The notes beneath the pieces are model-generated. The model made no database searches. It was not told the origin of the DNA and saw nothing but the letters and a program-made list of their open reading frames with translations. Positions 11,074 to 32,000 of a stretch of DNA of 32,000 bases are shown piece after piece. Made by a program: the position numbers and the translations under genes. Source of the DNA: Geotalea daltonii FRC-32 (GTDB lineage Bacteria; Desulfobacterota; Desulfuromonadia; Geobacterales; Geobacteraceae); assembly GCF_000022265.1 (NCBI RefSeq), contig NC_011979.1, forward strand, positions 3,930,001-3,962,000. The letters run 5' to 3'. Within the stretch, counting starts at the first letter, position 1; each line of letters opens with the position of its first letter.

Positions 11074-12845
11074 GAGCAAGCTTCCGCCTGAAACTGATGC
11101 TCTCCTATCTCTGTCTGGTTCTGCTCATGGGGGCAATCATTTATGCATATCTCAACAATGCCCTGGAAAGATACGTGCTGGCGGAAATCAGAAACAACCT
11201 GATCAGCGAAACAAAGCTGGCTGCCCTAATAGCCGACAAGTCCGGAGAAAACCTGCACCGGGATGCACCGGCCATTGCTGCAGCTGTCGGCAAAGAGATC
11301 AAGGCCAGGGTAACCATCATCTCCAGCGACGGTCAGGTAGTCGGTGATTCCGAACTCAGCCCTGTTCAGCTCAAAGACCTGGAAAATCACCTTTATCGAC
11401 CGGAAGTACAGGCATCGCTGAAAGATGGCACCGGTACCGCCATTCGTTATTCATCGACCCTGCAGATGCCCATGCTATATGTTGCCCGCCCCTTGGCCCT
11501 TAAAAACGGGGAAACGGCTACCTTAAGACTCGCACTGCCCTTGGCCCAGCTCCAGAAAGCGCGTTCCCACATGCACCTGATGCTGGGCATTGCTTTATTC
11601 CTGGCAGTCCTGGCAGTCCTCTTTTTCAGTTACGTCATGTCCAACATTACATCACGCTCCCTGCGCACCATATCCGCCATCGCAGCCAGAATCGGCAAGG
11701 GAGAATACGGTCTCAGGGTTCCCAGGGAAAGCAGCGATGAGGTGGGAGAACTGGCCGTGGTGATGAATGACATGTCGGAGAGGATCGAGGCCCAGTTGTC
11801 AAGCATTATGGCAGAAAGAAACAGGCTTGACACTATTCTTCGCGGCATGGGCGAGGGGCTGATGGTGACAGACGCCCAAGGCATTATTACTCTGGTCAAT
11901 CCGGCCTTCCGCAAGGTGTTTTCCGTCGATGAAGATGTTGAAGGCAGACCTCTGATCGAGGTGAGCAGGCAACCGGCCCTCCATGCCGCCTACAGAAAGA
12001 TCATGGCCGATGGTATCGAACGGCAGGAAGAGATGAGCCTGAACGGAGAAAAGGACGGCAATATCCTGACCCACTGGGTGCCGCTCATTGACGGCAACAG
12101 ACTTACTGGGGTAGTGGCGGTTTTTCACGACATATCCGACCTGAAGAGGCTGGCCGCTACCCGTCGGGATTTTGTGGCCAACGTCTCCCATGAGCTGAGA
12201 ACCCCGGTCTCCGTCATCCAGGGGTATGCAGAAACCCTCCTGGCTGGTGCTCTGGAAAGTGACCCCGACCGGGCACGTAGGTTCATTCAAGTAATCCATA
12301 ATCATGCGGAGCGACTATCAGCCCTTATCGCCGACCTGTTGACCCTGTCCGAACTTGAGTCCGGCAAGGTCCTTCTTGAACCTCACCCCCTGAATCTCCG
12401 GTCGGCAGTAAAGCAGGCAATGTCCCTTCTCAGTCAGAGGGCAACTGACAAGGGAATAACCCTGGATACAGGGAATATCGAGGCAAGCCGATTTGTCCTT
12501 GCCGACAAGGGGAAGCTGGATCAGGTACTGGTCAACCTGCTGGATAATGCGATCAAATACACCCCTGGCAATGGCAAGGTAACAGTCACTGCCGAGGATG
12601 AGGCAGAAATGCTGAAAATATCCGTGACTGACACCGGCCTGGGTATTCCAGCCAAAGACCTGCCCCGGATCTTTGAACGTTTTTACCGTGTCGATGAAGC
12701 GCGAAGCCGTGACAAGGGGGGAACCGGTCTCGGACTTTCCATAGTAAAGCACATTGTACAGTCTCACGGCGGCATGATCTCGGTAAAAAGCATTCCGGGA
12801 GAGGGGTCGACCTTTTCATTCACCCTGAAGAAAGGCGGAAAATAA
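11070..12845 (+). CDS. PhoR-type sensor histidine kinase (TM, periplasmic domain, TM, HAMP, PAS, HisKA, HATPase)
   Basis: ATGA overlap with the upstream regulator gene. H-box DFVANVSHELRTPVS. N, G1 and G2 boxes (LLDNAIKYTP, TDTGLGI, GGTGLGLSIVKHIV). Confidence 0.88.
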   Translation: MRASFRLKLMLSYLCLVLLMGAIIYAYLNNALERYVLAEIRNNLISETKLAALIADKSGENLHRDAPAIAAAVGKEIKARVTIISSDGQVVGDSELSPVQLKDLENHLYRPEVQASLKDGTGTAIRYSSTLQMPMLYVARPLALKNGETATLRLALPLAQLQKARSHMHLMLGIALFLAVLAVLFFSYVMSNITSRSLRTISAIAARIGKGEYGLRVPRESSDEVGELAVVMNDMSERIEAQLSSIMAERNRLDTILRGMGEGLMVTDAQGIITLVNPAFRKVFSVDEDVEGRPLIEVSRQPALHAAYRKIMADGIERQEEMSLNGEKDGNILTHWVPLIDGNRLTGVVAVFHDISDLKRLAATRRDFVANVSHELRTPVSVIQGYAETLLAGALESDPDRARRFIQVIHNHAERLSALIADLLTLSELESGKVLLEPHPLNLRSAVKQAMSLLSQRATDKGITLDTGNIEASRFVLADKGKLDQVLVNLLDNAIKYTPGNGKVTVTAEDEAEMLKISVTDTGLGIPAKDLPRIFERFYRVDEARSRDKGGTGLGLSIVKHIVQSHGGMISVKSIPGEGSTFSFTLKKGGK

Positions 12846-12910: not shown

Positions 12911-13282
12911 TCAGCTCAACATCTCCCGAACCTTATCCACCATGTTGCGAGCTATGAAAGGCTTGCGGATGAATCCGTCGGCTCCGGAATCGGTTACCAG
13001 GCGGGCCAGTTCATCTGCCGGCTTCGATGAGAGCAAAAGGATCGGAATACTTTTGGTCTGGGGATTGTCCTTTAGCATTTTTGCCTTTTTGTCCCCGTCG
13101 AGGATAGGCAACATCACATCGAGAATAATCAAATCCGGTTTTCTCTCGGAGTGAATGTATTTATCCGCCGCCTTTGCATTGGGTGCAGTGATAACCGTGA
13201 AACCACCCTCTTCAAGGGCATCGCTGGCCATGGCCACCACGATCTCGCTGTCATCCACGACCAGGACCGTCTTCTTTTTCAT
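12911..13282 (-). CDS. Single-domain CheY-like response regulator
   Basis: Receiver fold motifs are present (VLVVDDS, DLIILDVMLP, LLLSSK, IRKPF). I moved the start to the ATG at 13282 (MKKKTVL) with GGAGG upstream. Confidence 0.85.
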   Translation of the reverse strand: MKKKTVLVVDDSEIVVAMASDALEEGGFTVITAPNAKAADKYIHSERKPDLIILDVMLPILDGDKKAKMLKDNPQTKSIPILLLSSKPADELARLVTDSGADGFIRKPFIARNMVDKVREMLS

Positions 13283-13467
13283 CACTTTCCTCCACCCTTC
13301 CTTGTTACATTGCAAACGTTATTTTATTAACGCTACAGGAACTCCTCAAAGTAGTCAAGGTCCTTGTGAAACGTCTCCTTCAGACACCACATGATAGCAT
13401 TAGGTTTTTTTCAAGGACAAGGTTGTTTTTCAGATGATCCACAACACAGGTGTGAATCTGATTTCTC

Positions 13468-15804: not shown

Positions 15805-16767
15805 CTAGAGTGGCATGCTCATCTCCTCCACACACACAAGAGCCTCAAGGGCATCGACCAACCTGCTGTTAAAGGAGTCCTTCATCTCCTGCCTGATTAT
15901 GTTGATGGAGATGTGGGGGGGCAGAGCCTTGCGACCGGTACGATCTATGGTCAGAGTGCAATACAGATCGCAGAGGGCACAAACCTGGGCACTGCGCGGA
16001 ATAAGCGCTGCCTTGAGACCATTGGGATAGCCAGTGCCGTTATTCCGCTCGTGGTGAAAGCGGACGACGTCCAGGGAAACTTCACTGAGCCGTGTTTTCT
16101 CCTTCAGATACCGGTATCCCTCCTCCGGATGCTTCTTGAACTGAGCAATTTCAGTCTCCGTCAGCTTCCCGGACTTGTTCAGGATATCCTGGGGAACGAA
16201 GATCTTGCCGAAATCATGGAGCAGGGTGCCGATGCCCACGTCTTCCAGTTCGTCACGTGAAAGAAGATAAACCTCCGAATGGAGCAGAATTGAAAGGGCC
16301 GTCACCTGCAGGCTATGGACAAAGGTATGGTAGTTATAGGACATGACCGTTTCCAGGGAACGCAAGGCTTCTTTATCATTGGCCAGATAGAGCAGAAGAT
16401 TTTCGATGAGGCGCCGGCTCCGGTCAAAATCCTCCACCTTCTCCGGATGTTGAAAAAGGTCGCCGACGAAATTGATAGAGGTCTGGTAAATGATCTTGCC
16501 TTTGGTCTTGCTGTCAAATGAATCGCTCTTCAATAACCGCTCGGCATTATTTTCCATGTAGTCGGTGAGAACCTCCAGGTCAGCCGGCCTCACATAGAGA
16601 CAGGCAACGCTGTTGCCCATGAGCCTGGCGGCATCTTCCCGATCAAAATTTCGTCCATGGCTCTTATACAGCACATAGTTGTTGCCGCTTTTCAAAAACA
16701 GGGCAACATCAGGAAAAATTTCTGGTTCAATGCTCTCAATTGCTACCGGAACATAGAATTCTCCCAT
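15805..16767 (-). CDS. HD-GYP domain c-di-GMP phosphodiesterase with a DUF3391-like N-terminus
   Basis: HDFGKIFVP (HD) and HHERNNGTGYPNGL (GYP). I chose the ATG at 16767 (MGEFYVPV) because GGAGGTGGGAGG lies directly upstream. The ATG at 16809 is an alternative start. Confidence 0.88.
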   Translation of the reverse strand: MGEFYVPVAIESIEPEIFPDVALFLKSGNNYVLYKSHGRNFDREDAARLMGNSVACLYVRPADLEVLTDYMENNAERLLKSDSFDSKTKGKIIYQTSINFVGDLFQHPEKVEDFDRSRRLIENLLLYLANDKEALRSLETVMSYNYHTFVHSLQVTALSILLHSEVYLLSRDELEDVGIGTLLHDFGKIFVPQDILNKSGKLTETEIAQFKKHPEEGYRYLKEKTRLSEVSLDVVRFHHERNNGTGYPNGLKAALIPRSAQVCALCDLYCTLTIDRTGRKALPPHISINIIRQEMKDSFNSRLVDALEALVCVEEMSMPL

Positions 16768-16891
16768 CCTCCCACCTCCACAGATCTTCGCCGGCTTTCT
16801 TTTCGCCATTTGCCTTACCTTATCGGCAGGAGGGGCGGGCAACTCAAGGATCTGAATATGGATTACCCCCTTTCAAGCATTGCCGGCGCCG

Positions 16892-19818: not shown

Positions 19819-20526
19819 ATGACCTTATCTGCTTACAGGGAAGTCATCCTCTCTTCCAAAAGTGATGACGAAGCCGCAATTCTTGCCATTTTCCGCGATG
19901 TTTTCGCACGGGAACCCAACGCCCTGTTCTCTCTCCTCAACATCTACAAGGAACTTCCCATCTGCAACAACGCCACTATTTTCGACATAAAGGGAAAAAA
20001 TATCGAGTTCCAGGCAACCCCTCTGCAGATAGCGGCTATCGCTAACGGTACTGAAACCATTATCCAGGCCCCGTTCTTCAATATGAGCGTTATGGGGCAG
20101 ATGGTATACCTGGACCTGCCCCACCAGCTGGTTTCCCTGGGGAAATTTTCCTACGCCGAGGTCCTGATCGACAAGCGCAACACCGTCAGGGTCAAGCTGC
20201 GAATTCCCCTGAATGTCATGTTGCACGCTGACGGCAAAACGATCCCCGGGGTTGTCCGAGACATTTCCCTGGGGGGGTGCAGCCTGACTACCCTCCTTGG
20301 AGCGGACCTGGAAGCAGCGGAAGACCTGAGCCTGCATATCAAGATCTTGAATGAGGGAAAGGTGGTGGAGATAGATGTGCCTGCTAAAGTGGTGCGCGTA
20401 GGTCCCGGGCCACCCCACGATTGCGCCATGATGTTTCAGCACACATCAGAGTCGGAACGGATCCTTTCCGTTTTCATCTATCAGCGTCAACTGGAGATAA
20501 TCCGGGAACTGCGGGAAAAAGCCTAG
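19819..20526 (+). CDS. PilZ domain (c-di-GMP receptor) protein
   Basis: The C-terminal half has the two PilZ motifs, RNTVR (RxxxR) and, 23 residues later, DISLGG (DxSxxG). The N-terminal domain is of unknown type. Confidence 0.75.
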   Translation: MTLSAYREVILSSKSDDEAAILAIFRDVFAREPNALFSLLNIYKELPICNNATIFDIKGKNIEFQATPLQIAAIANGTETIIQAPFFNMSVMGQMVYLDLPHQLVSLGKFSYAEVLIDKRNTVRVKLRIPLNVMLHADGKTIPGVVRDISLGGCSLTTLLGADLEAAEDLSLHIKILNEGKVVEIDVPAKVVRVGPGPPHDCAMMFQHTSESERILSVFIYQRQLEIIRELREKA

Positions 20527-20575: not shown

Positions 20576-21739
20576 CTACGCTCTGGACACGGTAAAGCGA
20601 AAAATGGTTCCCTCGGCAGAGGATGTAAATCGCACCTTGCCGTTAAGGGCCCTTTCCCCCAGGTACTTCATCATAAAGGTTCCTATGCCCCGGCCATGTT
20701 TCGCCTTGGTGCTGAAATAACGCTGAAAGATCCGGCCCGAAATCTGATCGGGAATGGGCTGACTGTTCCAAACGCAGAAGGTAACATCCCCCTCACCCTC
20801 CTCCAGCCACAACCTCACCTCATCACCGTTGTCACTCCCCTCCAGAGCATTGGTAATCATATTGGATAGCACCCGCAACAACAAAGGCAGGTCAGTGGCA
20901 ATCCTTCCCTCGACGGTGGATGGAAGTTGAATGTGCTTATGTATTGACATGGGATGGGAAATGAAGACGTCTCTCAGGCAATCAATCACTTCAGCTATGG
21001 CCACAGGCCTGAGTTCAGGCCGGAAAGCGCCGGTTTCAACCTGAATAAGGTTCTGCTGTATCCTCAGCTCACTTTCCAGTCGCAACGAAAGGCGGTGCAC
21101 CGATTCCGCCAATGGCCCACCTGCATAACCGGAGCAGGCCAGCAATTCGCTGGCCCCCACAAGCCCGGTGGCCATGTTGCGTATATCGTGGAAAAAAATT
21201 GACTGAATTTCCGCCCAATTTTCCTGTTCGCTTATGTCCTGGAGCATGAGCACCAGAAAACATCGCCCACTGATGTAAAAGGGTGTTGCCCGGACATTCA
21301 GGCAGATGTCAGCCGTGCCGCCGTTACGCCAGACGGTTGCCACACATTTTCTCTCCTCGCCGGTCCTTCGCAAGAGGCTGACAACAATGGCTATGGCCGT
21401 ACCACAACTGGCACAGGTCCTGCCGGTACCGCAACCGCCAGGGGAATCGCCGGCATGAACACAGTGGATCGCCTCTCCTGGCCGCAAACCGATCACCTCA
21501 AGAGCATCCTTCACACCCGTACCCTTTAAAAAGGTGTCATTGGCAGCGAGTATCTGCCGTGACTCGTTCAGCACCGCGAAGAGGCCACCGACCGTCTGCA
21601 TCAGCCCATCGACCACAGGACTGGAGGCAATGATCGCAATATCCCTCTGTAGTTCTTCAGGGTCGGCACGTTCATATAAAGCCGCAATGTCCGAATCAGA
21701 AAGGTTAAGATAAGTGCAGAGGTAATCCATATCAGCCAT
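20576..21739 (-). CDS. Cytoplasmic sensor histidine kinase with a four-Cys insertion in its N-terminal sensor domain
   Basis: H-box-like FFHDIRNMATGL and a HATPase C-terminus (ITNALEGS, HGRGIGTFMMKYL). No TM segment is evident. HCVHAGDSPGGCGTGRTCASC is encoded at 21404-21466. I moved the start to the ATG at 21739 (MADMDYL) with GGGAGGG upstream. Confidence 0.8.
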   Translation of the reverse strand: MADMDYLCTYLNLSDSDIAALYERADPEELQRDIAIIASSPVVDGLMQTVGGLFAVLNESRQILAANDTFLKGTGVKDALEVIGLRPGEAIHCVHAGDSPGGCGTGRTCASCGTAIAIVVSLLRRTGEERKCVATVWRNGGTADICLNVRATPFYISGRCFLVLMLQDISEQENWAEIQSIFFHDIRNMATGLVGASELLACSGYAGGPLAESVHRLSLRLESELRIQQNLIQVETGAFRPELRPVAIAEVIDCLRDVFISHPMSIHKHIQLPSTVEGRIATDLPLLLRVLSNMITNALEGSDNGDEVRLWLEEGEGDVTFCVWNSQPIPDQISGRIFQRYFSTKAKHGRGIGTFMMKYLGERALNGKVRFTSSAEGTIFRFTVSRA

Positions 21740-21898
21740 TAAGCCCTCCCATAAACCCCACCTGGCTAAATACCAACTTATTAAACTAAGATAATATAGC
21801 AAACCGGTTTTTTTATCCAGAGAGAAACTGCGCGCCTTCCAAATGGAAGCCGTTGTTATCGTTTGGCCAGAGGGTAAAATTATAATAGTTTTTAATTG

Positions 21899-21948: not shown

Positions 21949-24162
21949 GTGAAACGGAAAGATCTTTTTATCTCATCAGCAAAAAAAAGGGGATATGCCA
22001 AACTGCTGCCGGCAGGAATCAGGGCGCGGCTGTTTTTGCTCATCATCCTCGTGCTGCTGCCCCAAGGGCTGTTTTTGACATGGATCTACAATGAACGGTA
22101 TCAGACACAACGGACTCAGGCAATGAACACGGAACTGGAGGTGGCACAGGGCGTTGCCATGGCCTTTTCCGGATACGTGGAGGGAATATGGCGTGAAAAT
22201 CATGCCATCGGCGAGGCGATCCGCATGTTTTCATCGCCGGTATTACCTAAGGCCAGAAAGCTCCTGACCATTACCGCCACCCAGCATGCTTCCATCCGAA
22301 GTTTCAACTGGGTGAGCCCCCAAGGGGTCATCCTTGCTTCCAGCCAGCCTGTACTCGAGGGAAAAGATCTTTCTTCTCTCCCTTATTTCATCAAAATCGT
22401 CACAGGCGCTGAATGGAGCATCAGCGATCTCACCAGCAGAGGGATAAAGGTCCAAGCACCGACCTTCGCCATTGCCACAGCTTGCCGCGATGGCCACGGC
22501 AAGCTGCATGGGATTGTCGTAGCTGTCATAGAGCCTGAGCGGCTCGGCGAGTTGACCCTCACCCAACGCCGTCTCGGCAAAGGAGCCTATGCCATCTTCG
22601 ATAGCCGGGGCGTCATTGTCTACCACAGCATCTATCAAAAACTTGCCTGGGAAGATCGGGCCGGGTGGAGAAAGATGGATCCCATTTTACAAGCTGCACT
22701 GAAAACTCGAACTCCCCAGGTGGGAATAGCGGTACCGGTGCTGCGCAAGAGCGAATGGGTTTCGGCGCGAGTACCTATGCAGGATCTGGGATGGGTGGTG
22801 GGAGCAGGAAAGCCGGTTGAAGTGGTATTCGGACCGGTCCGACAAGCACTGGTCCGTGAAATAGGCTTTTCACTTCTGGCTCTGGCACTGGCTTTTCTCT
22901 CCGCATACATGGTGGCACGCACCATTGCCCTTCCACTGCAGCGTCTGGAAAAGGCGACAACAGGCATGGGAAGCTCCCCACAGGCAGCACCTGAAGATCC
23001 CCTGGCTCCCATGGAGGTCAGCCGGTTGCGCCACGTTATCATGGAAATGGCGGACAACCTGCGCGCCGGCGAAAAAAGATTTCGCCTGGCCCTGGAAAGT
23101 ATTCCCGACATGATCGCCATCTGTGATCAGCAACTACGCATCCAGTATGTGAATCCCGCCACAATCAGTGCCACCGGCCTGCCCTCCTCGAAGCTGGTTG
23201 GGCGGCTGGACTCGGAAATATGGCCGGAACTGTACAAGCTGTGGCGCCCCGTTTTGGAAAAGGCGTTAGAAACGGCAAAGGTGCAGAATCTGGAATTGGA
23301 ACTCCCTTCCCCGAAAGGCAGCCGTCACTTCCACGTCACCTATGTGCCCCTGATGGAAGAGGACGGTCATGTCAAGGAACTTATGGGCATCACCCATGAT
23401 TATACGGTAAGGAAGCAGGCAGAAGATGAACTGAAGAGGACCCTTGAGGAATTGATCCGCTCCAACAGGGATCTTGAGCAGTTCGCCTATGTTGCGTCCC
23501 ACGACCTGCAGGAACCGTTGCGGATGGTGGCAAGCTATGTCCAGTTGCTGGACAAGCGGTACAGGGGGCAGCTCGATCAAAAGGCGGACAGATATATAAA
23601 TTATGCGATACAAGGGGCAAAAAGGATGCAGACCCTGATCGAGGATCTGCTCGCCTACGGACGGATCAATCGCGTTGTTGAATTTCAACAGGTGGATCTT
23701 AATTTGGTCTGTGCCGAAGCGGTAAAGGCCATGGAGACTGCCATCAGTGAGAGCGGAGGAGCTGTCCAGGCCGCGGATCTCCCGGTGGTCTGGGGAGACA
23801 AGATACAGCTGTTCATCCTGTTCCAGAATCTGATCGGCAATGCCATCAAGTATCGACGGCAGGATGTTCAGCCCCTTGTCCTAATTTCAGCACGGCAAAC
23901 GGAAGATGCCTGGGTCATCTCGGTGCAGGACAACGGCATTGGCATAGAGAAACAATATTTCGACCGCATTTTTCAGATTTTCCAGCGGCTCCACGCACGG
24001 GAAGAATATCCCGGTACCGGCATCGGTCTTGCCTCATGCAGGAAAATTGTAGAGCGTCATGGCGGCCGGATCTGGGTCGAGTCCATGCCCGGCAACGGCT
24101 CAACCTTTTTTTTCACGATTCCGGACCGAATTACTAGCCCAGGGGACCGACAATACCCATAA
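21949..24162 (+). CDS. Membrane sensor histidine kinase (TM, Cache-like periplasmic domain, TM, HAMP, PAS, HisKA, HATPase)
   Basis: 737 aa with hydrophobic segments near residues 25-45 and 305-325, and a PAS region (ALESIPDMIAICD ... ITHDYTVRK). Phytochrome-type H-box FAYVASHDLQEPLRMV. C-terminus GTGIGLASCRKIVERHGGRIWVES. GTG start. Confidence 0.88.
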   Translation: MKRKDLFISSAKKRGYAKLLPAGIRARLFLLIILVLLPQGLFLTWIYNERYQTQRTQAMNTELEVAQGVAMAFSGYVEGIWRENHAIGEAIRMFSSPVLPKARKLLTITATQHASIRSFNWVSPQGVILASSQPVLEGKDLSSLPYFIKIVTGAEWSISDLTSRGIKVQAPTFAIATACRDGHGKLHGIVVAVIEPERLGELTLTQRRLGKGAYAIFDSRGVIVYHSIYQKLAWEDRAGWRKMDPILQAALKTRTPQVGIAVPVLRKSEWVSARVPMQDLGWVVGAGKPVEVVFGPVRQALVREIGFSLLALALAFLSAYMVARTIALPLQRLEKATTGMGSSPQAAPEDPLAPMEVSRLRHVIMEMADNLRAGEKRFRLALESIPDMIAICDQQLRIQYVNPATISATGLPSSKLVGRLDSEIWPELYKLWRPVLEKALETAKVQNLELELPSPKGSRHFHVTYVPLMEEDGHVKELMGITHDYTVRKQAEDELKRTLEELIRSNRDLEQFAYVASHDLQEPLRMVASYVQLLDKRYRGQLDQKADRYINYAIQGAKRMQTLIEDLLAYGRINRVVEFQQVDLNLVCAEAVKAMETAISESGGAVQAADLPVVWGDKIQLFILFQNLIGNAIKYRRQDVQPLVLISARQTEDAWVISVQDNGIGIEKQYFDRIFQIFQRLHAREEYPGTGIGLASCRKIVERHGGRIWVESMPGNGSTFFFTIPDRITSPGDRQYP

Positions 24163-24185: not shown

Positions 24186-27100
24186 ATGGCCAATCAAGAC
24201 AAGGAGCACGATCAGCGGGAGATTTCCAGCAGCAAATACAGCGATGCCCTGAACCACATCAATATGCTGATCCATTCAAAACTGGATTTCGACAGCATCA
24301 TGAAAAAGGTGGTGGTGGAGGTTGCGCGGACCATAGATGCTGAATCGGCAGTCATCTACCTGCCGGAAGGGGATGGTTGGATCGCAAAATACATTTACGG
24401 ATTTCCTGGAGAACTGCAGGACAGGCAGATCAAGGCCGAGGAGATTTCCTTTTCCATAGAAGCAGCCAGGCAGAGGAAAGCTGTGGTCATCAACGACGTT
24501 CTCCATGATAACCGGGCAAACAACAAGTTTAATGAGCGATACGGCATAAACGCCCTTCTTGACGTGGCCCTGACCATTGGTGAAAAGGTGGTCGGCAACT
24601 TTTCCATCCATTACCATCATCCCGAGCGGAAATTTTCCCACAAGGAAGTGGACTTCGCCAATAAGGCAGCATCCACCATAACGCTGGCCCTGAAAAACGC
24701 ACTGCTGCTCCAGGAGCGAATAAATGCAGAGGAAGCCGCCCGTGCCAATGAGCAGAAGGTGCTGCAGACCCTTGACCGGCTTATGATCCTGGTAGGTGTT
24801 TCGTCGGCTGTCCTAAGCGAGACGACCATTCAGGGCACCCTCAACCGTGCAGTAGAAGGAGCCATTGCCGTCACCGATGCACAGGTAGCAACCTCAGGCC
24901 ATGGCTACAAGGAAGGAAGCATCACTATCGGTGCCCTCGCTTATGATGCCCCATTATCCCCCTGCCCTACGGATGTCACCTTTACCATCAACCGTGGCGG
25001 CGTCTACATGGAACTTCTGCAAAAATCATCAACCATCCGCTTTACCCAAAAGGAACTGGAAAACCACCCGGAGTGGTGGGGACTGCCCGAAGGACATGCG
25101 CCGCTGAAGGGCCTTTTGGGCGCAAGACTGGAGGGGACGGGAGGCGAAGCCTGTGGCATGATCCTGGTTTCCCACAAGCGGCATGGGGAATTCACCGAGG
25201 AAGACGAAGTCATGCTCACCCAGCTCTGCCAGCTCACTTCTCTGGCCATCAGACATATTGAAGCCCGTAATGTTGTCGAAAAACATGCCACCGAGCTGGA
25301 AAGCCTCAGCAAAAAGCTCCGGGAAAGCGAAGAACTGTTCAGGGAGTTCTTTGCCAATGCCCCGATCGGCTTGGCAATATTTGGACTTGATGGCCGATTC
25401 CAGGAAGTAAACCAGGCCTACTGCCGCATCATAGGGTATGACCGGGAAGAGGTCTTTCAGCCCGGTTTCACCTTCATGAAGGTTACCCATCATGACGATA
25501 TTGAAGAGAATCTGGCCGAACTGAATCGGGTGCTGAAAGGTGAAACAAGCAGCTTTTTCATCGAGAAACGCAACATCCGCAAAGACGGCAGCATTATCTG
25601 GGTGAGGGTCAGCGCCACCCAGTGCCGTGACCCGGAAGGTAAATCCGCAAGGTTAATTGCCATAGTCGAGGACATTCATGACCGTAAACAGGCTGAGGAG
25701 GCCCTTAGAGTCTCGGAGGCAAACTACCGGACCATCTTCGATTCTGCCAACGACGGCCTCTTCATCCAGTGTGCAGAGTCTGGAGCCATTTTGGACGTGA
25801 ACCAAAGGGTGCTGGAGATGTACAAATACCGTTACGATGAAATTCTGCGCCTGAATATAGGAGAGTTGAGCGCCTACTCGGCAGGCTACACCCAGGAACG
25901 GGCCATGGAGGTCGGTCGTCGCGCCGCATCCGGCGAGCCCCAGCTGGTGGAATGGCTGGCCCTCGCCAAGGACGGAACCCAATTCTGGGTCGAAGTTAGC
26001 CTGAAAAAGGTGATACTCGGCGGCAAAGACCGCCTTCTGGCAGTGGTGCGGGATATTTCCGAGCGGAAAAGGGTACTGGAAGCCCTGCAGCAGAACGAAG
26101 AAAGACTGCGCGTCAGCGAGGACCGGCTGGTCCTCGCCCAGTCCGCGGCAGGCATCGGCATGTGGAATGTGAACCTGCTGACGCGGGAAAGCACCTTCTC
26201 CAATCAATACCTGTCCCTTCTCGGCATCGATCGTCCCCCCGGATCCTATGAAGATTTCCTGGCATTGCTTCATCCCGATGACCGATACCAGGTTATGATG
26301 GAAACGGATCAGGCCATCGCCCAGTGCAGACAGTTCCAGGCAATGTTCCGTGTCAACTGGAATAATGGCTCCCTGCGCTGGATCATGGGCCGGGGTGGAG
26401 TTTTCTGCGACAGCAGGCAGCAACCCTTGCGCATTACCGGCGTCATCTTCGATGTCACGGACCGGAAAAAGGCGGAAGAAGACCTGAAAGCAGCCATGGA
26501 TGAGCTGGAACGTTCAAACCGGGAACTGGAGCAGTTCGCCTACATCGCCTCCCACGACCTGCAGGAACCGTTACGGATGGTGGCCGGATACGTGAAGCTT
26601 TTGGAAAGAAGATACAAGGAAAGTCTGGACGAGAAGGCGCAGACTTATATTAATTTTGCCGTCGATGGCACGAGCCGGATGCAGAAACTGATTGAAGGGC
26701 TACTCACCTACTCCCGCATTTCCCGCGGCATCAGCTTGCTGCCCGTGGACACCAACATACCCTTTGCAGCAGCACTGGCTAACCTGGATTCGGCAATCCG
26801 GGAGAGCAACGCCAGGATCACCAGTGAAACCCTCCCCGTGGTGGAAGGGGATGAGACACAATTGATGCAGCTTTTCCAGAACCTCCTGGCCAACAGCCTG
26901 AAGTACCGGAAAAAGTGCATACCTCCCCAAATATATGTGTCGGCCAGAAGGGAGGGTAATGAATGGCTGTTTTCGGTGCAGGACAATGGTATAGGCATTG
27001 AAAGGGGATATTACGACGAGATATTCCAGATATTCAGGAGACTGCACGCACAGGACGAATACCAGGGAACCGGCATCGGCCTGGCATCCTGCAAGAAAAT

Positions 27101-27191
27101 CGTCGAACGCCATGGTGGCAAAATATGGGTAGAATCGGAACCGGGTGAAGGGTCGACCTTCTTTTTTACCATGCCGGCTGCAAGAAGTTGA
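24186..27191 (+). CDS. Soluble multi-sensor histidine kinase (GAF-GAF-PAS-PAS-PAS-HisKA-HATPase)
   Basis: 1001 aa. It starts 23 nt after the previous kinase gene, with an AAGAGGA RBS. Two GAF-like blocks are followed by three PAS/PAC blocks, each ending in a D(I/V)(T/S/H)(D/E)RK motif. H-box [16 protein letters not shown]. C-terminus [24 protein letters not shown]. Confidence 0.9.
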   Translation: [1001 protein letters not shown]

Positions 27192-27217
27192 TAAGTTGCG
27201 GCCAGTAATGGGATACC

Positions 27218-27380
27218 AGGAGTCTGTCGGACTTAGGGATCGAAGCGAGAGAATGGAAAATCGAGGACGGATATTTGGAAATTTGAGAGCGAATAGTGGA
27301 CCTATTTGTCGAAAATTTACGGAGATCCGGACCGATTTGCCATTTTCGCAGCCGATTCATTCTAAGTCCGACAGACTCCT
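27218..27380. repeat. Palindromic MITE-like element E3 (163 bp) with perfect 19-bp terminal inverted repeats
   Basis: AGGAGTCTGTCGGACTTAG at 27218-27236 is the exact reverse complement of CTAAGTCCGACAGACTCCT at 27362-27380. The interior arms are also largely self-complementary. It lies between two convergent operons, and its right end overlaps the TAG stop (27379-81) of the receiver gene by 2 nt. Confidence 0.75.
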
Positions 27381-27774
27381 AGCATTCAATCAGAGCTTTT
27401 ATGGTCGCCAATCCATGCTCCAGATCCAGCGGCTTGGTGAGATAGGCATCCATACCGGCAGCATATCCTTTCTCCTCGTCTTCACTGAAGGTATGGGCCG
27501 ACATGGCAACGATCGGAATATGCCCCCCCGTTGCTTTCTCCTTTTCACGAATGATGCGGGTAGCGGTTAAACCATCCATCCGCGGCATCTGCACATCCAT
27601 GGTTATCAGGTCATACTCCCCCTGTTCCCACATTTTCACCGCTTCAGCCCCGGTCTGTGCCACGTCAGTGTCGAACCCGATCAGGTCGAGCATGTTCTGC
27701 AACAAATTGCTGGCCATTGGGTCGTCTTCGGCAATGAGAATCCGCGCCTTTTTTTCATTTTTGGCTGAGGCCAT
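27379..27774 (-). CDS. Single-domain CheY-like response regulator (last gene of the kai operon)
   Basis: Receiver motifs are present (ILIAEDD, DLITMDVQMPRMDG, VAMSAH, TKPL) and there is no output domain. I moved the start to the ATG at 27774, 2 nt after the kinase TGA stop, with GAGG upstream. The ORF track uses the TTG at 27780. Confidence 0.88.
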   Translation of the reverse strand: MASAKNEKKARILIAEDDPMASNLLQNMLDLIGFDTDVAQTGAEAVKMWEQGEYDLITMDVQMPRMDGLTATRIIREKEKATGGHIPIVAMSAHTFSEDEEKGYAAGMDAYLTKPLDLEHGLATIKALIEC

Positions 27775-27776
27775 TG

Positions 27777-29057
27777 TCAAACCTCGATCCGGAATTCAGC
27801 GCCTGCTCCGGTATTGCGTACGGTAATCCTGCCGTTCATGTTCTTTTCGATAATCGTTTTCGACATGAATAATCCGACCCCGGTCCCCTTATCCGGCCCT
27901 TTGGTGGTGAAATACGGGTCGAATATCCGAATCATGATATCTTCGCCAATCCCCCCGGCGTTATCGACTATACAGACAACAGTCTTTCCCTCTTCCATGT
28001 ATATTCTCACAGTGACAAGACGGGGTCCACTGATATCTCGCTGCACAAAAGCATCCCGTGCGTTGAGAAAGATGTTGAGGAGCACCTGGGAGTACTCGTT
28101 TGGATAGCCGTTGACGGCTGGATCACCTGCAGCGTCAAGCTGGATACTGATTTGATTCTGGGTGAAGGTTCCCTCGACAAGAGAGATTGTTTTATTAATA
28201 ACATCGAGAAGGCGGAATGAAGTCTTTTCCTTATCAGCCCTGAAAAAATTCCTGAAGTCATCGATAGTTTTGGACATATGCATGATGGTATCCATGGATT
28301 TCCTGCAGTAATCGTCAAGCTCTTCTTCGTTGAATCTGCCGGTGTTGTGCAAAAGCTGCAGCTTCTGCACCATCAGTCCCAAGGTGTTCAAAGGCTGGCG
28401 CCATTGATGGGCAATGTTGCCTATCATCTCTCCCATGGCTGCCTGCCGCCCCTGATGCATGAGCAGTTGCTCGCTTTTGCGCAGTTCTTCAGCCGTCTGC
28501 AGACGCCGCACGATTTCCGCCTGCAGAGCCTGCTGGGCCGATTTCTGCTCCGAAAGATCCGTCACCACCATATTCTGCCCCCGGCTGTTGCCTGCTACCA
28601 TGGCAGAGCATGAGAGCAGTACGGGAAAGGGCTCCCCATTCCCGGTTACCAGATCCATATCCCCTTTGCTTACCTGTGTGCATTTTCCCAGCAGGGAAGC
28701 AAAATCAGCGGCATCTGCAGTGGAAACGAAATTAGCAAATGCCACGCCGATGATCTTTTCCAGCGGGACCTTGAGCATGTCCGCCAGCGCCTTGTTGCAG
28801 TAGATGATGGTCCCATCTGGCGCCAGGGTCACCGCTCCCTCGTTCATGGATTCCACGAGGAGGCGATAGGGATAATCCGCCCCCTCAAGGGTGAATATCC
28901 TTTCTCCCTCGGGGGCGTTCACTACCAGGGCATCCACTTCACCGCCAAAGATGGCACGCAGCGTCTCCTCTGCTTCTTCGAGGCGCAGACGTAGATCCTC
29001 ATTCTCTGCCAGGATATCTTTCACTGCTCTTTTAACCATTGCCATGCCATTACCCAT
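27777..29057 (-). CDS. PAS-domain histidine kinase (kai operon)
   Basis: N-terminal coiled segment, a PAS block (LLVESMNEGAVTLAPDGTIIYCNKA), H-box NIAHQWRQPLNTL and a HATPase C-terminus (LLNIFLNARDA, DNAGGI, GTGVGLFMSKTII). The start is ambiguous among the ATGs at 29057, 29045 and 29039. Confidence 0.88.
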   Translation of the reverse strand: MGNGMAMVKRAVKDILAENEDLRLRLEEAEETLRAIFGGEVDALVVNAPEGERIFTLEGADYPYRLLVESMNEGAVTLAPDGTIIYCNKALADMLKVPLEKIIGVAFANFVSTADAADFASLLGKCTQVSKGDMDLVTGNGEPFPVLLSCSAMVAGNSRGQNMVVTDLSEQKSAQQALQAEIVRRLQTAEELRKSEQLLMHQGRQAAMGEMIGNIAHQWRQPLNTLGLMVQKLQLLHNTGRFNEEELDDYCRKSMDTIMHMSKTIDDFRNFFRADKEKTSFRLLDVINKTISLVEGTFTQNQISIQLDAAGDPAVNGYPNEYSQVLLNIFLNARDAFVQRDISGPRLVTVRIYMEEGKTVVCIVDNAGGIGEDIMIRIFDPYFTTKGPDKGTGVGLFMSKTIIEKNMNGRITVRNTGAGAEFRIEV

Positions 29058-29065
29058 ATCAGAGG

Positions 29066-29425
29066 CTACTTTTTCGTGCGCACATCAAGCCCCAGGAGAA
29101 TTTTATCCGTTTGCGACATGTCGCCGATGAACTTCCGTAGCGGCGGCGGGAGTTCCTTGACCAGAGTGGGAGCTGCAACTATCTGGCCCTCCCTGGCGTA
29201 TATCGGCTGTTGGTAAATATCGATGATTTCCAACTCGTATCGTCCATTGAGATGTTCCTCGCAGATCTTCCGTACATTCTCGATGGCGCGCTGTGAATTG
29301 GGGGTTGTCCCGGTGACGTAGAGACGCAGGATGTATTTCCCCTTCTTCGTCTTTTCTACGGCCAGTTCGAAGTCCTTGAGCGCATTCCCCGCTGCCGAGC
29401 CTTCATCCTTTTTTTTCTTCCCCAT
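29066..29425 (-). CDS. kaiB: KaiB-family protein, copy 2 (119 aa)
   Basis: The core YILRLYVTGTTPNSQRAIENVRKICEE ... APTLVKELPPPLRKFIGDMSQTDKILLGLD aligns by eye with cyanobacterial KaiB (LKLYVAGNTPNS ... [28 protein letters not shown]). It has a Lys-rich N-terminal extension of about 30 aa. GGAG RBS. Confidence 0.9.
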   Translation of the reverse strand: MGKKKKDEGSAAGNALKDFELAVEKTKKGKYILRLYVTGTTPNSQRAIENVRKICEEHLNGRYELEIIDIYQQPIYAREGQIVAAPTLVKELPPPLRKFIGDMSQTDKILLGLDVRTKK

Positions 29426-29459
29426 TACAAGCTCCGGATACTATTAAATGTGATTCGGC

Positions 29460-29789
29460 TCATTTGACCGGCCGGATGTCAAGACCGACCAAGACCTTTT
29501 CGGTGTTGGACAGGTCGCCGATTATCTTCTTCACCGGCTCGGGCAGTTTCCGCACCAGGGTCGGCAGGGCCAGAATCTGATCACCTTTGGCCAGCTCCGG
29601 ATTTATCAACAGGTCTATAATTTCGATCTGATATTGCCCGGCCAAGTGCTCCTCGCAGATTTTTTTCAGGTTGGCAAACGCAGTCAGACATTTTGGTGTC
29701 TGCCCAGCCACGTACAATCTCAGGGTCCAGTGCTCCTGGTCCGTTTTGCGGCTTTCTCCCGCTGATTTGGCTTCCTTCACGGCACTCAT
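29460..29789 (-). CDS. kaiB: KaiB-family protein, copy 1 (109 aa)
   Basis: [27 protein letters not shown] ... [30 protein letters not shown]. The start ATG overlaps the kaiC stop as ATGA (29786-29789). Confidence 0.9.
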
Positions 29790-31528
29790 TGCGTCCCTTC
29801 CCCCTTTGAGCTTTTCCTGTTGATAGCCGAAGAGGCCACGCTGTCCGCTTGCCGCGCCTTCGCCAACTCCAGGCTTTCCCTCATCAGTGCCTCGTCGTTT
29901 AATTTTTCATGGGTTACAATTCGTTGCAGTTCTTCCTGCTCAATCTCAAATTCCTCCTGCAGAGAGGCAATCTGGGCTTCCACAATCTTTTTCCGGCGTT
30001 CCAGCTCGCGCTGTTTCCGCTCTGTCTCCTGTCGTCGATCAATGGCAGAGGCCCTGTCCTTGGCCTCTTGGGCGATCCGAGCCGCGCCGGTTAACACCCC
30101 CCCCTGGCCCACATATACGTCACGCAGGTTAACTCCTTGATCCGTCAGCAGAAATTCCCGCACCTGGTTGGAATGGGCTATGCCACGGGCTTTGAGTATG
30201 TACAGGCCACGGTTGCGCTCTCCGCTGGACTCAATGTTCTGAAGCAGGAGCCAGGCGTCCATGAGTGATGAGATGCCGACTTCCGTCCTTTCCAGGCTGG
30301 CACTAGTAGTGGTCAAGTCAGTGCAAAAAGCGGTGATCTGTTTCAATTTCAGATAATCTACCAACCGGCAGAGCATGGACTTGACCTCGCTCTCAGTGGC
30401 TGTGGTCACCAGATTTGAGATGGGATCGATGACGACAATGGCTGGAGAAAAGCCTTCAACTGCTTTGTGCATGGTTACCAGGTGCATCTCCAGGCCATAA
30501 ATGGTGGGACGGGTAGTATGAAACCTGAGAAGTCCCTTCTCCACCCACTGTTCCAGATCCAAGCCGATGGAGCGCATATTGCGGAGAATCTGGCTCTGGG
30601 ATTCCTCGAAGGCGAAGTAAAGACAGCGCTCCCCCCGGCGACAGGCAGCATTGACAAAATGTGCAGCCATGCTGCTCTTGCCGGTTCCCGCCGTACCGGT
30701 AACCAGGATACTGCTCCCCCGGTAATACCCTTTTCCCCCGAGCATGGTGTCAAGGCGCGGAATACCTGTAGAGACTCGCTCGGTAGAAGCTCGATGATCA
30801 AGGCCGAGAGAGGTAATTGGCATGACGGAGAAACCCTGCTCGTCGATCAGGAATGGATATTCGTTGGTCCCGTGGGAGGAGCCGCGATATTTGATGATCC
30901 GCAGGCGCCGGGTAGCAACCTGCTCGACCACCGTATGGTTGAGGAAGATCACACAGTCGGCCACATACTCTTCCAAACCGTAACGGGTCAGGGTCCGCTC
31001 ACCCTGCTCTCCGGTAACGATGGCGGTGACCCCTTTGGCCTTCAGAAACCGGAACAGCCGCCGCAACTCAGCCCGCAGGATAGATTCGCTGGAAAAGCCC
31101 GAGAACAGTGCTTCAACCGTATCCAAAACTACCCGCTTCGCACCAACGGAATCTATGGCATGGCCGAGACGGATGAAAAGCCCTTCCAGGTCGTATTCGC
31201 CCGTTTCCTCAATCTCGCTTCGCTCGATGTGCACGTAATCCAGGGCAAGAAGATGTCTTGCCAGAAGGTCCTTGAGATTGAAACCGAGGGAAGCATAATT
31301 CTGCACCAGTTCATCCGGTTTCTCTTCAAAGGACATGAAGACCCCCGGCTCATCGTGATGCAAAGCGCCACGCAGCAGGAACTCCATAGCAAAGAGTGTT
31401 TTACCGCAACCCGTGCCACCACAGACCAAAGTTGGCCGACCCTGCGGCAAGCCACCACCCGTTATCTCGTCCAGCCCCCTTATCCCGGTGGGGCATTTGA
31501 GTAAGACCTCATTCTTCACTTTCATCAT
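29786..31528 (-). CDS. kaiC: KaiC-family double-domain ATPase/autokinase with a C-terminal coiled-coil extension of about 100 aa
   Basis: Two RecA-like halves carry Walker A GGTGCGKT and GTAGTGKS, catalytic EE pairs (MSFEEK, FAFEES) and Walker B motifs (VVLDTV, VVIDPIS). TEVGISS lies at the position of the cyanobacterial T426/S431/T432 phospho-sites. The start is ambiguous (TTG 31546 after GGAGGAG, or ATG 31528/31525). Confidence 0.93.
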
Positions 31529-31870
31529 CTTTCCTTTCCCAGCCAATCTGCTCCTCCCGCCGCCACCATGATAATGAACTTTGGATTAATAACACAGTCG
31601 ACAATGATTTTGAAGAAAACATTGAATAAGTTTATCTAAAAAAAACCCACGGCATCTCCACCGGAGGTTAGTTTATTCAGTCCGTTACCCCGGCCATATG
31701 GCCGTCACCAGCATCCTTCAAGGTGCCAACCAGAAGCTGAGAAAATGATGGATCATGTACAGGTCATCGGCAGGCTGGCATGAATTGGGTGATGGGAAAG
31801 CGCGTAAAGAGCAAGGTATAAGGTGCTTCATATTCAGCGGCTAAACACCATGAAAAAAAAGAAGTACTAT

Positions 31871-32000
31871 TCAAATCGTGAAATAAAAAGTAGCGCCGCG
31901 GCCCGGTTCCCCATGGCCCCGGATATCTCCCCCATGGCGTCTGATGGCAGCCTTTGCCAGTGTGAGACCGATACCATTGCCCGAGGATCCAGCCAGCTCA
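31871..32000 (-). CDS. 3' end of another histidine kinase gene (partial, runs off the window)
   Basis: My hand translation of the minus strand gives ...GNGIGLTLAKAAIRRHGGDIRGHGEPGRGATFYFTI, with a TGA stop at 31871-31873. This is a typical HATPase G2-box and C-terminal strand. Confidence 0.55.
   Translation of the reverse strand, partial: ELAGSSGNGIGLTLAKAAIRRHGGDIRGHGEPGRGATFYFTI

Follow-up and report, generated by a model that had tools for sequence, protein, structure and literature searches.

The five genes analyzed in our study make up a KaiA-free KaiC/KaiB timer cassette, found here in Geotalea daltonii and very widespread elsewhere, that is coupled to a PAS histidine kinase. The cassette is an ordinary representative of an already known type of system, yet it carries a conserved pair of KaiB paralogues. 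In the window, i.e. the whole 32-kb stretch of DNA that was analyzed, the minus strand holds tightly packed open reading frames for KaiC, two KaiB proteins, a histidine kinase with a PAS domain and a response regulator that consists of a receiver only. The features are as follows.

29786-31546, minus strand: kaiC, 586 aa, TTG start behind GGAGG
29460-29789, minus strand: kaiB-a, 109 aa, start overlapping the kaiC stop (ATGA)
29066-29425, minus strand: kaiB-b, 119 aa
27777-29057, minus strand: PAS-HisKA-HATPase kinase, 426 aa
28503-29057, minus strand: Kai-associated module at the N-terminus of the kinase, residues 1-185
27777-28502, minus strand: kinase core, HisKA and HATPase_c, same gene as the N-terminal module
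27379-27780, minus strand: receiver-only regulator, 133 aa from TTG or 131 aa from ATG at 27774
31547-31872, minus strand: upstream intergenic region of kaiC, covered by sequence and by a terminator and promoter scan
27205-27390, no strand: long palindromic element between the receiver gene and a convergent kinase gene

After the ATGA overlap of kaiC and kaiB-a, the next genes are separated by 34, 8 and 2 nt, the same figures as in the original prediction. The kinase/receiver junction is a 2-nt gap with the GenBank receiver start (ATG at 27774) or a 4-nt overlap with the TTG start. The GenBank names for these genes already match the identities given here. That they form one cassette, as had been proposed, is borne out by dozens of relatives in which the same order and tight spacing recur. 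Downstream sequence was sufficient in 70 loci of the closest genomic relatives, and in 53 of them kaiC is followed by kaiB(a), kaiB(b) and a gene for a PAS protein, always in this order. Carriers of the cassette comprise Geobacteraceae, methanotrophs, Methanoperedens archaea, Bacteroidales, Acidobacteriota and Planctomycetota; the cassette is a horizontally widespread KaiC2-type KaiBC. Most carriers lie outside groups known as phototrophs, and the host and most of its relatives are sediment or soil organisms. The Geobacter-type host suspected earlier is Geotalea (Geobacter) daltonii FRC-32 of the Geobacteraceae, in which phototrophy is not known.

The KaiC protein is 100% identical to the G. 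daltonii protein of that name and contains two RecA-like domains (PF06745, E 3e-109 in the domain search). Motif inspection found the catalytic motifs of KaiC, the PAS kinase and the receiver intact. For KaiC this agrees with the original prediction: the Walker A motifs were located at residues 43-50 and 284-291, the EE pairs at 74-75 and 314-315 and the phosphosite triad at T421-x4-S426-S427, with T421 upstream of the Ser-Ser phosphosites. KaiC scored 770 bits against NF006799 (cut-off 408), whereas the cyanobacterial model TIGR02655 gave 363 bits, below its cut-off of 546. The best PDB matches were 8dba, 8fwi and 8db3. The proposed relationship to the KaiA-less purple-bacterial hourglass is supported by the first of them, R. 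sphaeroides KaiC (E 2e-202), which aligned unbroken over residues 17-576, tail included, with identities of 54% overall, 58% in the core and 27% in the tail. The C-terminal extension of about 70 residues (about residues 490-586) is homologous to the R. sphaeroides coiled-coil tail; a crude heptad count in the G. daltonii tail was weak. Nearly all of the 120 KaiC homologues among the matches listed are 572-612 aa long, and therefore the extension is kept. Pitsawong et al. (2023) described SS sites and the C-terminal extension as the two traits of the KaiC2 clade. By PDB match, SS sites and extension, G. daltonii KaiC belongs to the KaiC2 / R. sphaeroides type.

No KaiA and no SasA-type protein was detected by domain search among the 26 ORFs scanned in the window, as stated before. 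A winged-helix regulator had also been reported missing; however, the window has one of OmpR/PhoB type (10396-11073), and the gene for its own kinase comes next (11070-12845). It is 16 kb away from the kai genes, and no link to them was found. Moreover, the absence of KaiA is no puzzle; the C-terminal extension had been overlooked. In R. sphaeroides, autophosphorylation of KaiC is independent of KaiA owing to the tail, and the CI ATPase is sped up by KaiB in a manner controlled by ATP/ADP (Pitsawong et al. 2023). The extension of the G. daltonii protein would stand in for KaiA in the same way, and this accounts for the lack of kaiA.

Both KaiBs matched PF07689 in the domain search (E 7e-27) and share 53% identity with each other. 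The kaiB-a product (GenBank ACM21910) matched 8fwj_M with 108 bits, and the kaiB-b product is named KaiB domain protein. First-position KaiBs of the cassette loci form one clade with 78% mean identity, and second-position KaiBs form a separate clade with 65% mean identity across phyla. The single R. sphaeroides KaiB shares 64% identity with the KaiBa clade vs 55% with the KaiBb clade; kaiB-a is the conserved one of the two paralogues and, in type, the orthologue of this R. sphaeroides protein. The more divergent kaiB-b product has its own N-terminal extension with a conserved F-E-x-A-L motif (DFELAV in G. daltonii). It keeps the ordinary KaiB core residues, and a domain search detected no KaiA-like domain in it; its AlphaFold2 model was of poor quality. 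All two-kaiB loci (56/56) have the a-then-b order. Since a natural KaiBa-KaiBb fusion occurs in an otherwise identical cassette, with the exact protein on three contigs, the two KaiBs are suggested to act together. KaiBa and KaiBb constitute an ancient conserved pair. The original prediction had listed both genes correctly and did not recognize that this pair of distinct paralogues is the interesting part. Our literature search found no paper on the KaiBa/KaiBb pair or on any two-KaiB cassette, and none with Kai experiments in G. daltonii.

The kinase (GenBank ACM21908, PAS domain-containing sensor histidine kinase) comprises PAS_9, HisKA and HATPase_c domains, with H217 in HQWRQPL, an N-box at 328 and a G2 box at 391-396. 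An output consisting of a PAS kinase with this H-box and a receiver lacking a DNA-binding domain had been anticipated, and the domain search agrees. The N-terminal module is built from a long helix (3-37), a β-hairpin (43-56), the PAS domain (61-167) and a linker helix (169-184), and was modeled by AlphaFold2 with a pLDDT of 91. It is 35-54% identical to the protein following kaiB in about 70 loci, whatever the output domain, with the consensus ...EAEETLRAIRxGEVDALVV... and invariant D42 and N88. All five independently chosen module homologues (5/5) sit directly after kaiB, and the R. sphaeroides kinase matches the module with 34% over 165 aa (E 2e-19). The first ~185 residues represent a Kai-specific module. 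Both KaiBs co-vary with it about equally. Behind the module come kinases of the HisKA, HisKA_2 or HWE class, sigma-54 activators, GGDEF-EAL or HD-GYP outputs, or no effector at all. Because the module is conserved while the effectors vary, signaling is likely to run from Kai via PAS to the output.

In the regulator, only Response_reg was detected by domain search, and its phospho-acceptor pocket (D19/D20, D62, S94, K116) is intact. Its best NCBIfam matches are the receivers of the hybrid kinases BarA, RcsC and TorS, and an identity as chemotaxis CheY was rejected on these matches. Among the cassette loci the best matches are fused receivers of cassette kinases (45% each at loci L008 and L080), and 20 of the 58 downstream proteins contain a fused receiver. 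The stand-alone receiver is therefore the equivalent of the receiver fused to the kinase in many relatives, i.e. part of a split hybrid kinase.

Upstream of kaiC, a terminator-like hairpin with a T-run at 31650-31663 on the minus strand would serve as the terminator of the kinase gene before it, whose stop lies near 31873. It is followed by a leader of ~100 nt and GGAGG before the TTG start. The sequence scan of this region revealed no sigma-70-like site on the minus strand and no promoter, and no Rfam family matched. At the other end, the palindromic element fills the spacer with perfect 18-bp arms at 27219-27236 and 27362-27379, the latter abutting the receiver stop codon; 0 such matches are expected by chance. 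Its predicted fold is a single hairpin (-76.9 kcal/mol, z = -8.7), and it was not found at the other cassette loci. The element may be a 3' stem (terminator or stabilizer) or a MITE-like insert, and it is uncertain whether it belongs to the operon. The c-di-GMP genes of the window (HD_5 at 15805-16842, PilZ at 19819-20526) had been named as possible targets. This idea rests only on the shared 32-kb window, and these neighbors do not recur beside the cassette in relatives.

Similar operons have been described before. Outside cyanobacteria, a kaiC-kaiB pair with a kinase or GGDEF/EAL gene behind it was reported in 2011; papers from 2016 and 2022 mention kaiC-B-PAS/HK operons and PAS genes co-operonic with kaiBC, respectively. 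Terrettaz et al. reported a network of KaiC, PAS kinase and single-domain regulator with stress phenotypes in non-phototrophic Pseudomonas, and stress roles are cited for the Legionella kai operon. Both kaiBC-PAS/kinase operons and KaiC-kinase-single-domain-regulator networks in non-phototrophs are hence already published, which contradicts the suggestion that no such system has been described beyond light-driven organisms.

Among the closest known systems is that of R. sphaeroides KD131 (Rhodobacter / Cereibacter; Pitsawong et al. 2023; PDB 8DBA, 8FWI, 8FWJ), a kaiC-kaiB-HWE kinase operon on plasmid pRSKD131A. It shares the KaiC subgroup, the SS phosphosites, the homologous extension, the absence of KaiA, a KaiB of KaiBa type and a next gene whose kinase product starts with the same helix/β-hairpin/PAS module. 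In contrast, it has one KaiB instead of two distinct paralogues, an HWE/HisKA_2 instead of a classical HisKA core and no separate receiver gene, and its phototrophic host experiences a day/night swing in ATP/ADP. Rhodopseudomonas palustris, likened to G. daltonii by description, has a KaiA-less kaiC-kaiB-PAS/kinase operon with one predicted promoter, yet a single KaiB and a phototrophic host; this proto-circadian system is hourglass-like with a fitness effect under cycles (Ma et al. 2016). With Synechococcus elongatus KaiABC the cassette shares a KaiC of two domains in which the catalytic motifs agree and the phosphosite triad is in register, the KaiB G-L-D fold-switch residues and output via a histidine kinase (SasA/CikA-RpaA there). 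However, G. daltonii lacks KaiA, a SasA-type KaiB-like kinase domain and an operon-linked RpaA, and its KaiC has S-S instead of S-T sites and an extra C-terminal tail. In cyanobacteria the PAS protein KidA binds fold-switched KaiB via its PAS domains.

We consider it reasonably probable that the cassette is a KaiA-independent hourglass or metabolic-state timer that is read out to a two-component pathway. Every biochemical step of this mechanism is taken from homology, mainly to R. sphaeroides KaiBC. KaiC would assemble through its C-terminal extension, speculatively as a dodecamer, and the extension would keep the A-loop exposed, so that KaiC would autophosphorylate on S426/S427 whenever the ATP/ADP ratio is high. 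KaiB on the CI ring would speed CI ATP hydrolysis and drive dephosphorylation as ATP/ADP falls; the phospho-state would thus integrate recent energy status over hours. KaiBa would retain the ancestral KaiC-binding role, and KaiBb might be a modifier or adaptor in the same complex. This complex would contact the helix/β-hairpin/PAS module of the next protein and switch its effector, in G. daltonii the HisKA kinase, which would phosphorylate D62 of the stand-alone receiver. [quoted passage not shown] The phosphorylated receiver might serve as a step in a phosphorelay, as a sink for phosphate or as a switch that binds proteins. The cycle tracked may be one of energy or electron-acceptor feast and famine, of temperature or of stress duration. 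In the G. daltonii setting, without an obvious daily ATP/ADP swing, a period and even the term timing are speculative.

A stress or stationary-phase switch without real time-keeping, in which KaiC phosphorylation reports growth arrest or stress and modulates the kinase, is possible but rather unlikely. It has been proposed for Pseudomonas and Legionella homologues and would suit sediment or soil hosts not known as phototrophic. In P. putida and P. protegens, the kaiC gene lies with genes for a PAS kinase and for a regulator that is only a receiver, proposed to be a phosphate sink or relay; KaiC binds the N-terminal PAS domain of the kinase, as reported for P. putida (Terrettaz et al.). In stationary phase these KaiCs undergo phosphorylation, and they influence resistance to osmotic and oxidative stress; a circadian function was not found. 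However, they belong to other KaiC groups and act without any KaiB, whereas G. daltonii KaiC resembles the hourglass protein of R. sphaeroides far more (54% identity with the tail counted in). Moreover, the strong constraint on both KaiBs across phyla is hard to explain without a KaiB-dependent delay or reset. The two readings overlap, as an hourglass timing an energy-poor period is a stress timer.

We regard it as improbable that the kinase is instead an input that senses redox state, oxygen or a metabolite via PAS and feeds KaiBC. PAS domains are classic sensors, the nearest folds are LOV, FixL and DosP sensors, and two papers repeat the idea that the R. sphaeroides kinase may relay a redox signal to KaiBC. 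An input device, however, would need a conserved part acting on Kai, but here the N-terminal module is conserved and the effector is swapped or missing, as expected of alternative outputs, and the kinase has its own receiver partner encoded alongside or fused. Besides, comparison by eye with the fold matches revealed neither a LOV flavin-cysteine motif nor a histidine at the FixL haem position. It is highly improbable that the cassette oscillates freely and sustains itself, with KaiBb as the source of the delay or antagonism that comes from KaiA in cyanobacteria: the tail-driven constitutive kinase of R. sphaeroides-type KaiC removes the KaiA-regulated step, and KaiBb is an ordinary KaiB in its core. 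Nevertheless, a pair that is ancient, ordered, conserved and once fused points to a specific two-component KaiB function, which is absent from the single-KaiB R. sphaeroides hourglass.

The kai operon of Geotalea daltonii FRC-32 consists of five open reading frames (ORFs) on the minus strand which together occupy 27379-31546:

29786-31546, minus strand: kaiC, 586 aa, with a TTG start seven bases past GGAGG
29460-29789, minus strand: kaiB-a, 109 aa, the first of two kaiB paralogues
29066-29425, minus strand: kaiB-b, 119 aa, the second paralogue
27777-29057, minus strand: PAS kinase, 426 aa
27379-27780, minus strand: receiver-only protein; the GenBank start is the ATG at 27774, which gives 131 aa

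The Pfam and NCBIfam assignments of all five proteins were unambiguous. The junctions are, in order, an ATGA overlap and gaps of 34, 8 and 2 nt, exactly as read in the original prediction. Public records already contain the operon in annotated form: there, the protein of G. daltonii FRC-32 named 'circadian clock protein KaiC' (4.30-Mb contig) is 100% identical to the KaiC of the window and has ACM21907 ('response receiver'), ACM21908 ('sensor histidine kinase, PAS domain-containing') and ACM21910 ('circadian clock KaiB domain protein') as neighbours. Since G. daltonii is a member of the Geobacteraceae, the guess of a Geobacter-type host was right as well. Upstream of the operon lies a kinase gene which ends near 31873, and a terminator-like hairpin with a T-run follows past this end at 31650-31663. 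Therefore, the kai genes probably start their own transcript. A promoter scan of the operon strand was negative for sigma-70-like sites. By eye, a TGGCAC upstream of kaiC was dismissed as a sigma-54 promoter because its spacing is wrong and it precedes the terminator-like hairpin. The upstream kinase was discarded as a conserved partner, as a kinase gene stands before kaiC in only 6 of 61 relatives.

On the downstream side a convergent kinase gene ends at 27191. The spacer between this gene and the receiver gene (27205-27390) is a single long palindrome with perfect 18-bp arms (GGAGTCTGTCGGACTTAG) at 27219-27236 and 27362-27379, one of which abuts the receiver stop codon. Its RNA folds into a single hairpin (-76.9 kcal/mol, z = -8.7). 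The palindrome is missing from the 87 other loci compared; it may have arisen as a MITE-like insert or serve as a 3' stem. Rfam gave no match in the whole window at gathering thresholds; at relaxed thresholds around the operon the lone hit, a miRNA precursor on the palindrome, was regarded as spurious.

KaiC matched PF06745 in two stretches (E 3e-109) and passed the general model NF006799 with 770 bits (cut-off 408). As had been claimed, it carries both Walker A motifs (43-50 and 284-291), both EE pairs (74-75 and 314-315) and the phosphosite triad T421/S426/S427, and the motif check also found the expected catalytic elements of the kinase and the receiver intact. The closest solved relative by far is KaiC of Rhodobacter sphaeroides (8dba, E 2e-202), whereas the cyanobacterial KaiC structures reached about 1e-101 to 1e-105. 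Over residues 17-576 the alignment with 8dba has no gap; identity is 54% as a whole, 58% for the core and 27% for the tail. The serines S426-S427 correspond to S413-S414 of the R. sphaeroides protein (LSSLMD vs ISSLMD), so that Ser-Ser replaces the Ser-Thr pair. The protein also has a C-terminal extension past CII (586 aa, with the 8dba alignment reaching 576), which the original prediction overlooked, and nearly all KaiC homologues listed are 572-612 aa long. In a crude count the tail gave a weak heptad signal, and a coiled coil is predicted by homology. According to Pitsawong et al., the KaiC2 clade is typically marked by Ser-Ser sites together with an extension of roughly 50 residues. Judged by its sequence, the G. 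daltonii protein is of the KaiC2 or R. sphaeroides type. The same authors reported that its tail assembles R. sphaeroides KaiC into a coiled-coil dodecamer whose A-loop is exposed, so that autophosphorylation is fast and KaiA-independent, that KaiB binding speeds the CI ATPase, and that KaiBC works as an hourglass which the ATP-to-ADP ratio resets.

The system differs from cyanobacterial KaiABC in several respects. KaiC failed the model of that group (TIGR02655, 363 bits vs a cut-off of 546). The cyanobacterial system has KaiA, whereas none of the 26 window ORFs scanned matched the KaiA family, in agreement with the reported absence of kaiA. This absence is expected and no puzzle, because the tail of this KaiC type confers KaiA-independent autophosphorylation in R. 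sphaeroides. Likewise, no SasA-like protein was found among these ORFs, as noted before: the kinase and KaiBb scored 50 and 27 bits against NF006800 (cut-off 342). The statement that the window holds no winged-helix regulator was incorrect in the letter, since there is one at 10396-11073; as a counterpart of the cyanobacterial RpaA output, this sole winged-helix regulator is PhoB-like and 16 kb off. Other signalling genes of the neighbourhood are listed with it:

10396-12845, plus strand: PhoB-like OmpR-family regulator (10396-11073) and HAMP-PAS kinase
12911-13315, minus strand: second receiver-only protein
15805-16842, minus strand: HD_5 (HD-GYP-like) protein
19819-20526, plus strand: PilZ protein
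20576-21802, minus strand: another kinase

The original prediction had also linked the operon to neighbouring c-di-GMP genes. This tie is one of proximity only and was rejected, as the linkage is not conserved. Two large sensor kinases lie in tandem on the plus strand at 21949-24162 (dCache-PAS) and 24186-27191 (GAF-PAS-PAS-PAS). They share a nearly identical C-terminal kinase core (…ELEQFAY[VI]ASHDLQEPLRMV…) and look like tandem paralogues. Both are convergent with the kai operon, and no kai linkage is conserved in relatives.

The kinase of the operon has H217 in HQWRQPL, the N-box at 328 and the G2 box at 391-396, and the receiver has D19/D20 (acidic pocket), D62 (phospho-acceptor), S94 (Ser/Thr) and K116 (Lys). 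Together they carry the full set of HisKA and receiver two-component residues, and phosphotransfer is predicted. The receiver had been labelled CheY. It reached only 57 bits against the CheY model (cut-off 200), the families that it matched best are hybrid-kinase receivers, and the operon holds no che genes; a chemotaxis CheY was therefore rejected. In related loci its best matches are receivers fused to cassette kinases, with 45% identity in an uncultured Geobacter. Thus, the kinase and receiver of G. daltonii are a split form of the hybrid kinase that many relatives have. No Hpt partner for the receiver was found among the window ORFs, and no output regulator is encoded near the kai operon.

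The first 185 residues of the kinase turned out to be a Kai-associated module. At about 70 loci the protein following kaiB matches residues 1-185 with 35-54% identity (E 1e-30 to 1e-55), independent of what follows the module. The consensus starts with L..E..ELR.RL.EAEETL.AIR.GEVDA.VV (motif ...EAEETLRAIRxGEVDALVV...), and G39, D42 and N88 are invariant in a set of 58 proteins. Behind the module, a census of 58 complete proteins following kaiB found HATPase_c kinases in 38 (29 HisKA, 5 HisKA_2, 2 HWE), a fused receiver in 20, a sigma-54 activator domain in four, and GGDEF-EAL and HD-GYP in one each; about a dozen short Bacteroidales proteins have no further domain. That the N-terminal module stays constant while the effectors behind it change speaks for intake of the Kai signal by the module and for the C-terminal part as the output. 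A protein search with residues 1-185 gave 527 homologues, and all five sampled, for which long contigs were the sole criterion, directly follow kaiB. Moreover, the HWE kinase of the R. sphaeroides operon (kaiC, one kaiB, HWE kinase) carries the module at its N-terminus (34% over 165 aa, E 2e-19), and the two-kaiB form occurs, with a hybrid kinase, on a Pararhizobium plasmid.

AlphaFold2 modelled the module with a pLDDT of 91 as helix 3-37, β-hairpin 43-56, PAS 61-167 and linker helix 169-184. Foldseek against the PDB returned generic PAS, LOV, FixL and DosP structures only (14-25% identity), and no PDB structure found by it reproduces the add-on of helix and hairpin. A reading of the PAS domain as light or haem sensor was set aside, as inspection by eye found neither a LOV cysteine motif nor the FixL histidine in the window sequence. 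At eleven loci of Bacteroidales and related MAGs (L026, L034, L035, L037, L039, L040, L045, L048, L051, L067 and L069) two kaiB genes are followed by a 232-250-aa protein which consists of the module and has no recognised effector domain; at L026 and L039 a receiver-containing protein of 650-690 aa comes next. Two Thermoanaerobaculia loci (L046, L077) lack kaiB and have a hybrid kinase directly after a close KaiC homologue; only the first ~60 residues of this kinase match the module.

The scan for relatives, with one genome per species, yielded 547, of which the best 80 are 60-75% identical. These 80 come from Geobacteraceae, other Desulfuromonadales, Methylococcaceae, Gallionellaceae and Syntrophaceae, from Planctomycetota, Bacteroidales, Acidobacteriota, Verrucomicrobiota and Nitrospirae, and from Ca. 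Methanoperedens and MAGs labelled Bathyarchaeota, Euryarchaeota and Methanobacteriota. Most of these groups are not known as phototrophic. All ORFs of the relatives' loci were compared with the five window proteins, and 70 loci, in which 900 nt or more follow kaiC, were informative. Among these, 53 have two kaiB genes, 14 one, two none, and one is irregular. The median gaps at the three junctions of the cassette (kaiC, kaiBa, kaiBb, PAS protein) are -1, 22 and 7 nt. Its spread across domains points to horizontal transfer. The same cassette is found at eight archaeal MAG loci (L016, L017, L018, L022, L044, L064, L073 and L078; labelled Ca. Methanoperedens, Bathyarchaeota, Euryarchaeota or Methanobacteriota), and their KaiC proteins are 60-66% identical to that of Geotalea, which implies transfer between domains.

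KaiBa and KaiBb each matched PF07689 with 93.5 bits, and both remained below the NCBIfam equivalog cut-offs of models built on cyanobacterial KaiB. Neither type has lost the KaiB core, in which the G-L-D of the fold-switch region is invariant, and KaiBb has an extra N-terminal stretch with a conserved F-E-x-A-L motif. Their order is fixed: each of the 56 two-kaiB loci has a KaiBa-type gene in first and a KaiBb-type gene in second position. Neighbour-joining separated the types into two unmixed clades; mean identity is 78% inside the KaiBa clade and 65% inside the KaiBb clade, against 56% across the two. The one KaiB that R. sphaeroides has groups with KaiBa (64% vs 55%). The experimentally studied R. 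sphaeroides and R. palustris have one KaiB each, whereas there are two here. A natural fusion of both paralogues (P0242, L088 5001-5615) consists of a KaiBa domain, an 8-residue linker and a KaiBb domain (204 aa) in a locus with the order kaiC, fusion, PAS kinase, receiver. Three contigs encode exactly this protein, and no second fusion of the kind was seen among the 88 loci compared. The fusion is a Rosetta-stone hint that KaiBa and KaiBb may act in one complex.

One tentative reading, to which we give rather less than even odds, is that KaiBa and KaiBb form an obligate two-protein unit in a portable timer cassette. KaiBa would bind the CI ring and KaiBb would be an adaptor or a delay element: placed beside KaiBa and bearing an N-terminal F-E-x-A-L helix of its own, it might dock the module of helix, β-hairpin and PAS domain or set the hourglass delay. 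The gene order (56/56), the two clean clades, the one fusion and the variable outputs behind a constant module would fit such an obligate pair. The AlphaFold2 model of KaiBb (48 close homologues) had a pLDDT of 45, too low to tell the ground-state from the fold-switched fold. On which KaiB co-evolves with the PAS module, a mirror-tree comparison over 49 loci did not discriminate, as it gave similar KaiC-controlled partial correlations for KaiBb (0.35) and KaiBa (0.31).

By homology, which underlies all biochemical steps, KaiC would autophosphorylate free of KaiA, enabled by its tail. KaiB would speed hydrolysis and the reset would depend on ATP/ADP, both taken from R. sphaeroides. The Kai complex would contact the PAS module of the kinase, for which there is precedent in the KidA PAS domains that bind fold-switched KaiB and in a Pseudomonas putida kinase whose PAS domain binds KaiC. 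The kinase would pass the phosphoryl group on to D62 of the receiver.

The literature already describes kaiC-kaiB followed by a kinase or GGDEF/EAL gene in organisms other than cyanobacteria, and for purple bacteria kaiC-B-PAS/HK operons. Also published are KaiB2/KaiC2 pairs of Bacteroidetes and archaea, PAS genes that share an operon with kaiBC, and non-phototrophs in which a network of KaiC, kinase and single-domain regulator has stress phenotypes. The claim that the function of the operon is undescribed was thus too strong, as every element has a published counterpart; it holds in so far as the system is apparently unstudied in Geobacteraceae. A literature search with incomplete coverage of subscription journals returned nothing relevant on kai genes of Geobacter or G. 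daltonii and no paper on the tandem kaiB pair. The G. daltonii locus itself adds little, being an annotated KaiBC operon of a type catalogued in non-phototrophs. Overall, the observation behind the original prediction is confirmed and its interpretation partly supported. The part that had no match in the literature found is the fixed KaiBa/KaiBb pair.

A structural explanation for the KaiA-independence of this KaiC type has already been published. Sediment and soil organisms that are not known as phototrophs, among them Geobacteraceae, Syntrophaceae, Bacteroidales and Methanoperedens, hold most of the closest relatives of the one hourglass KaiC with a solved structure, and most of these organisms combine two fixed KaiB paralogues and a Kai-specific PAS module with interchangeable outputs. 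If the obligate pair is real, it would be without counterpart in any studied Kai system, and the cassette would amount to a portable 'timer plus adaptor' for use with kinases, sigma-54 activators or c-di-GMP enzymes, which has travelled between bacterial phyla and reached archaea. The KaiBa/KaiBb pair is a concrete and cheap question for biochemistry, and a Geobacteraceae strain that can be cultivated, and whose output is a simple kinase plus receiver, is a sensible choice for asking what KaiBC systems measure in the dark.
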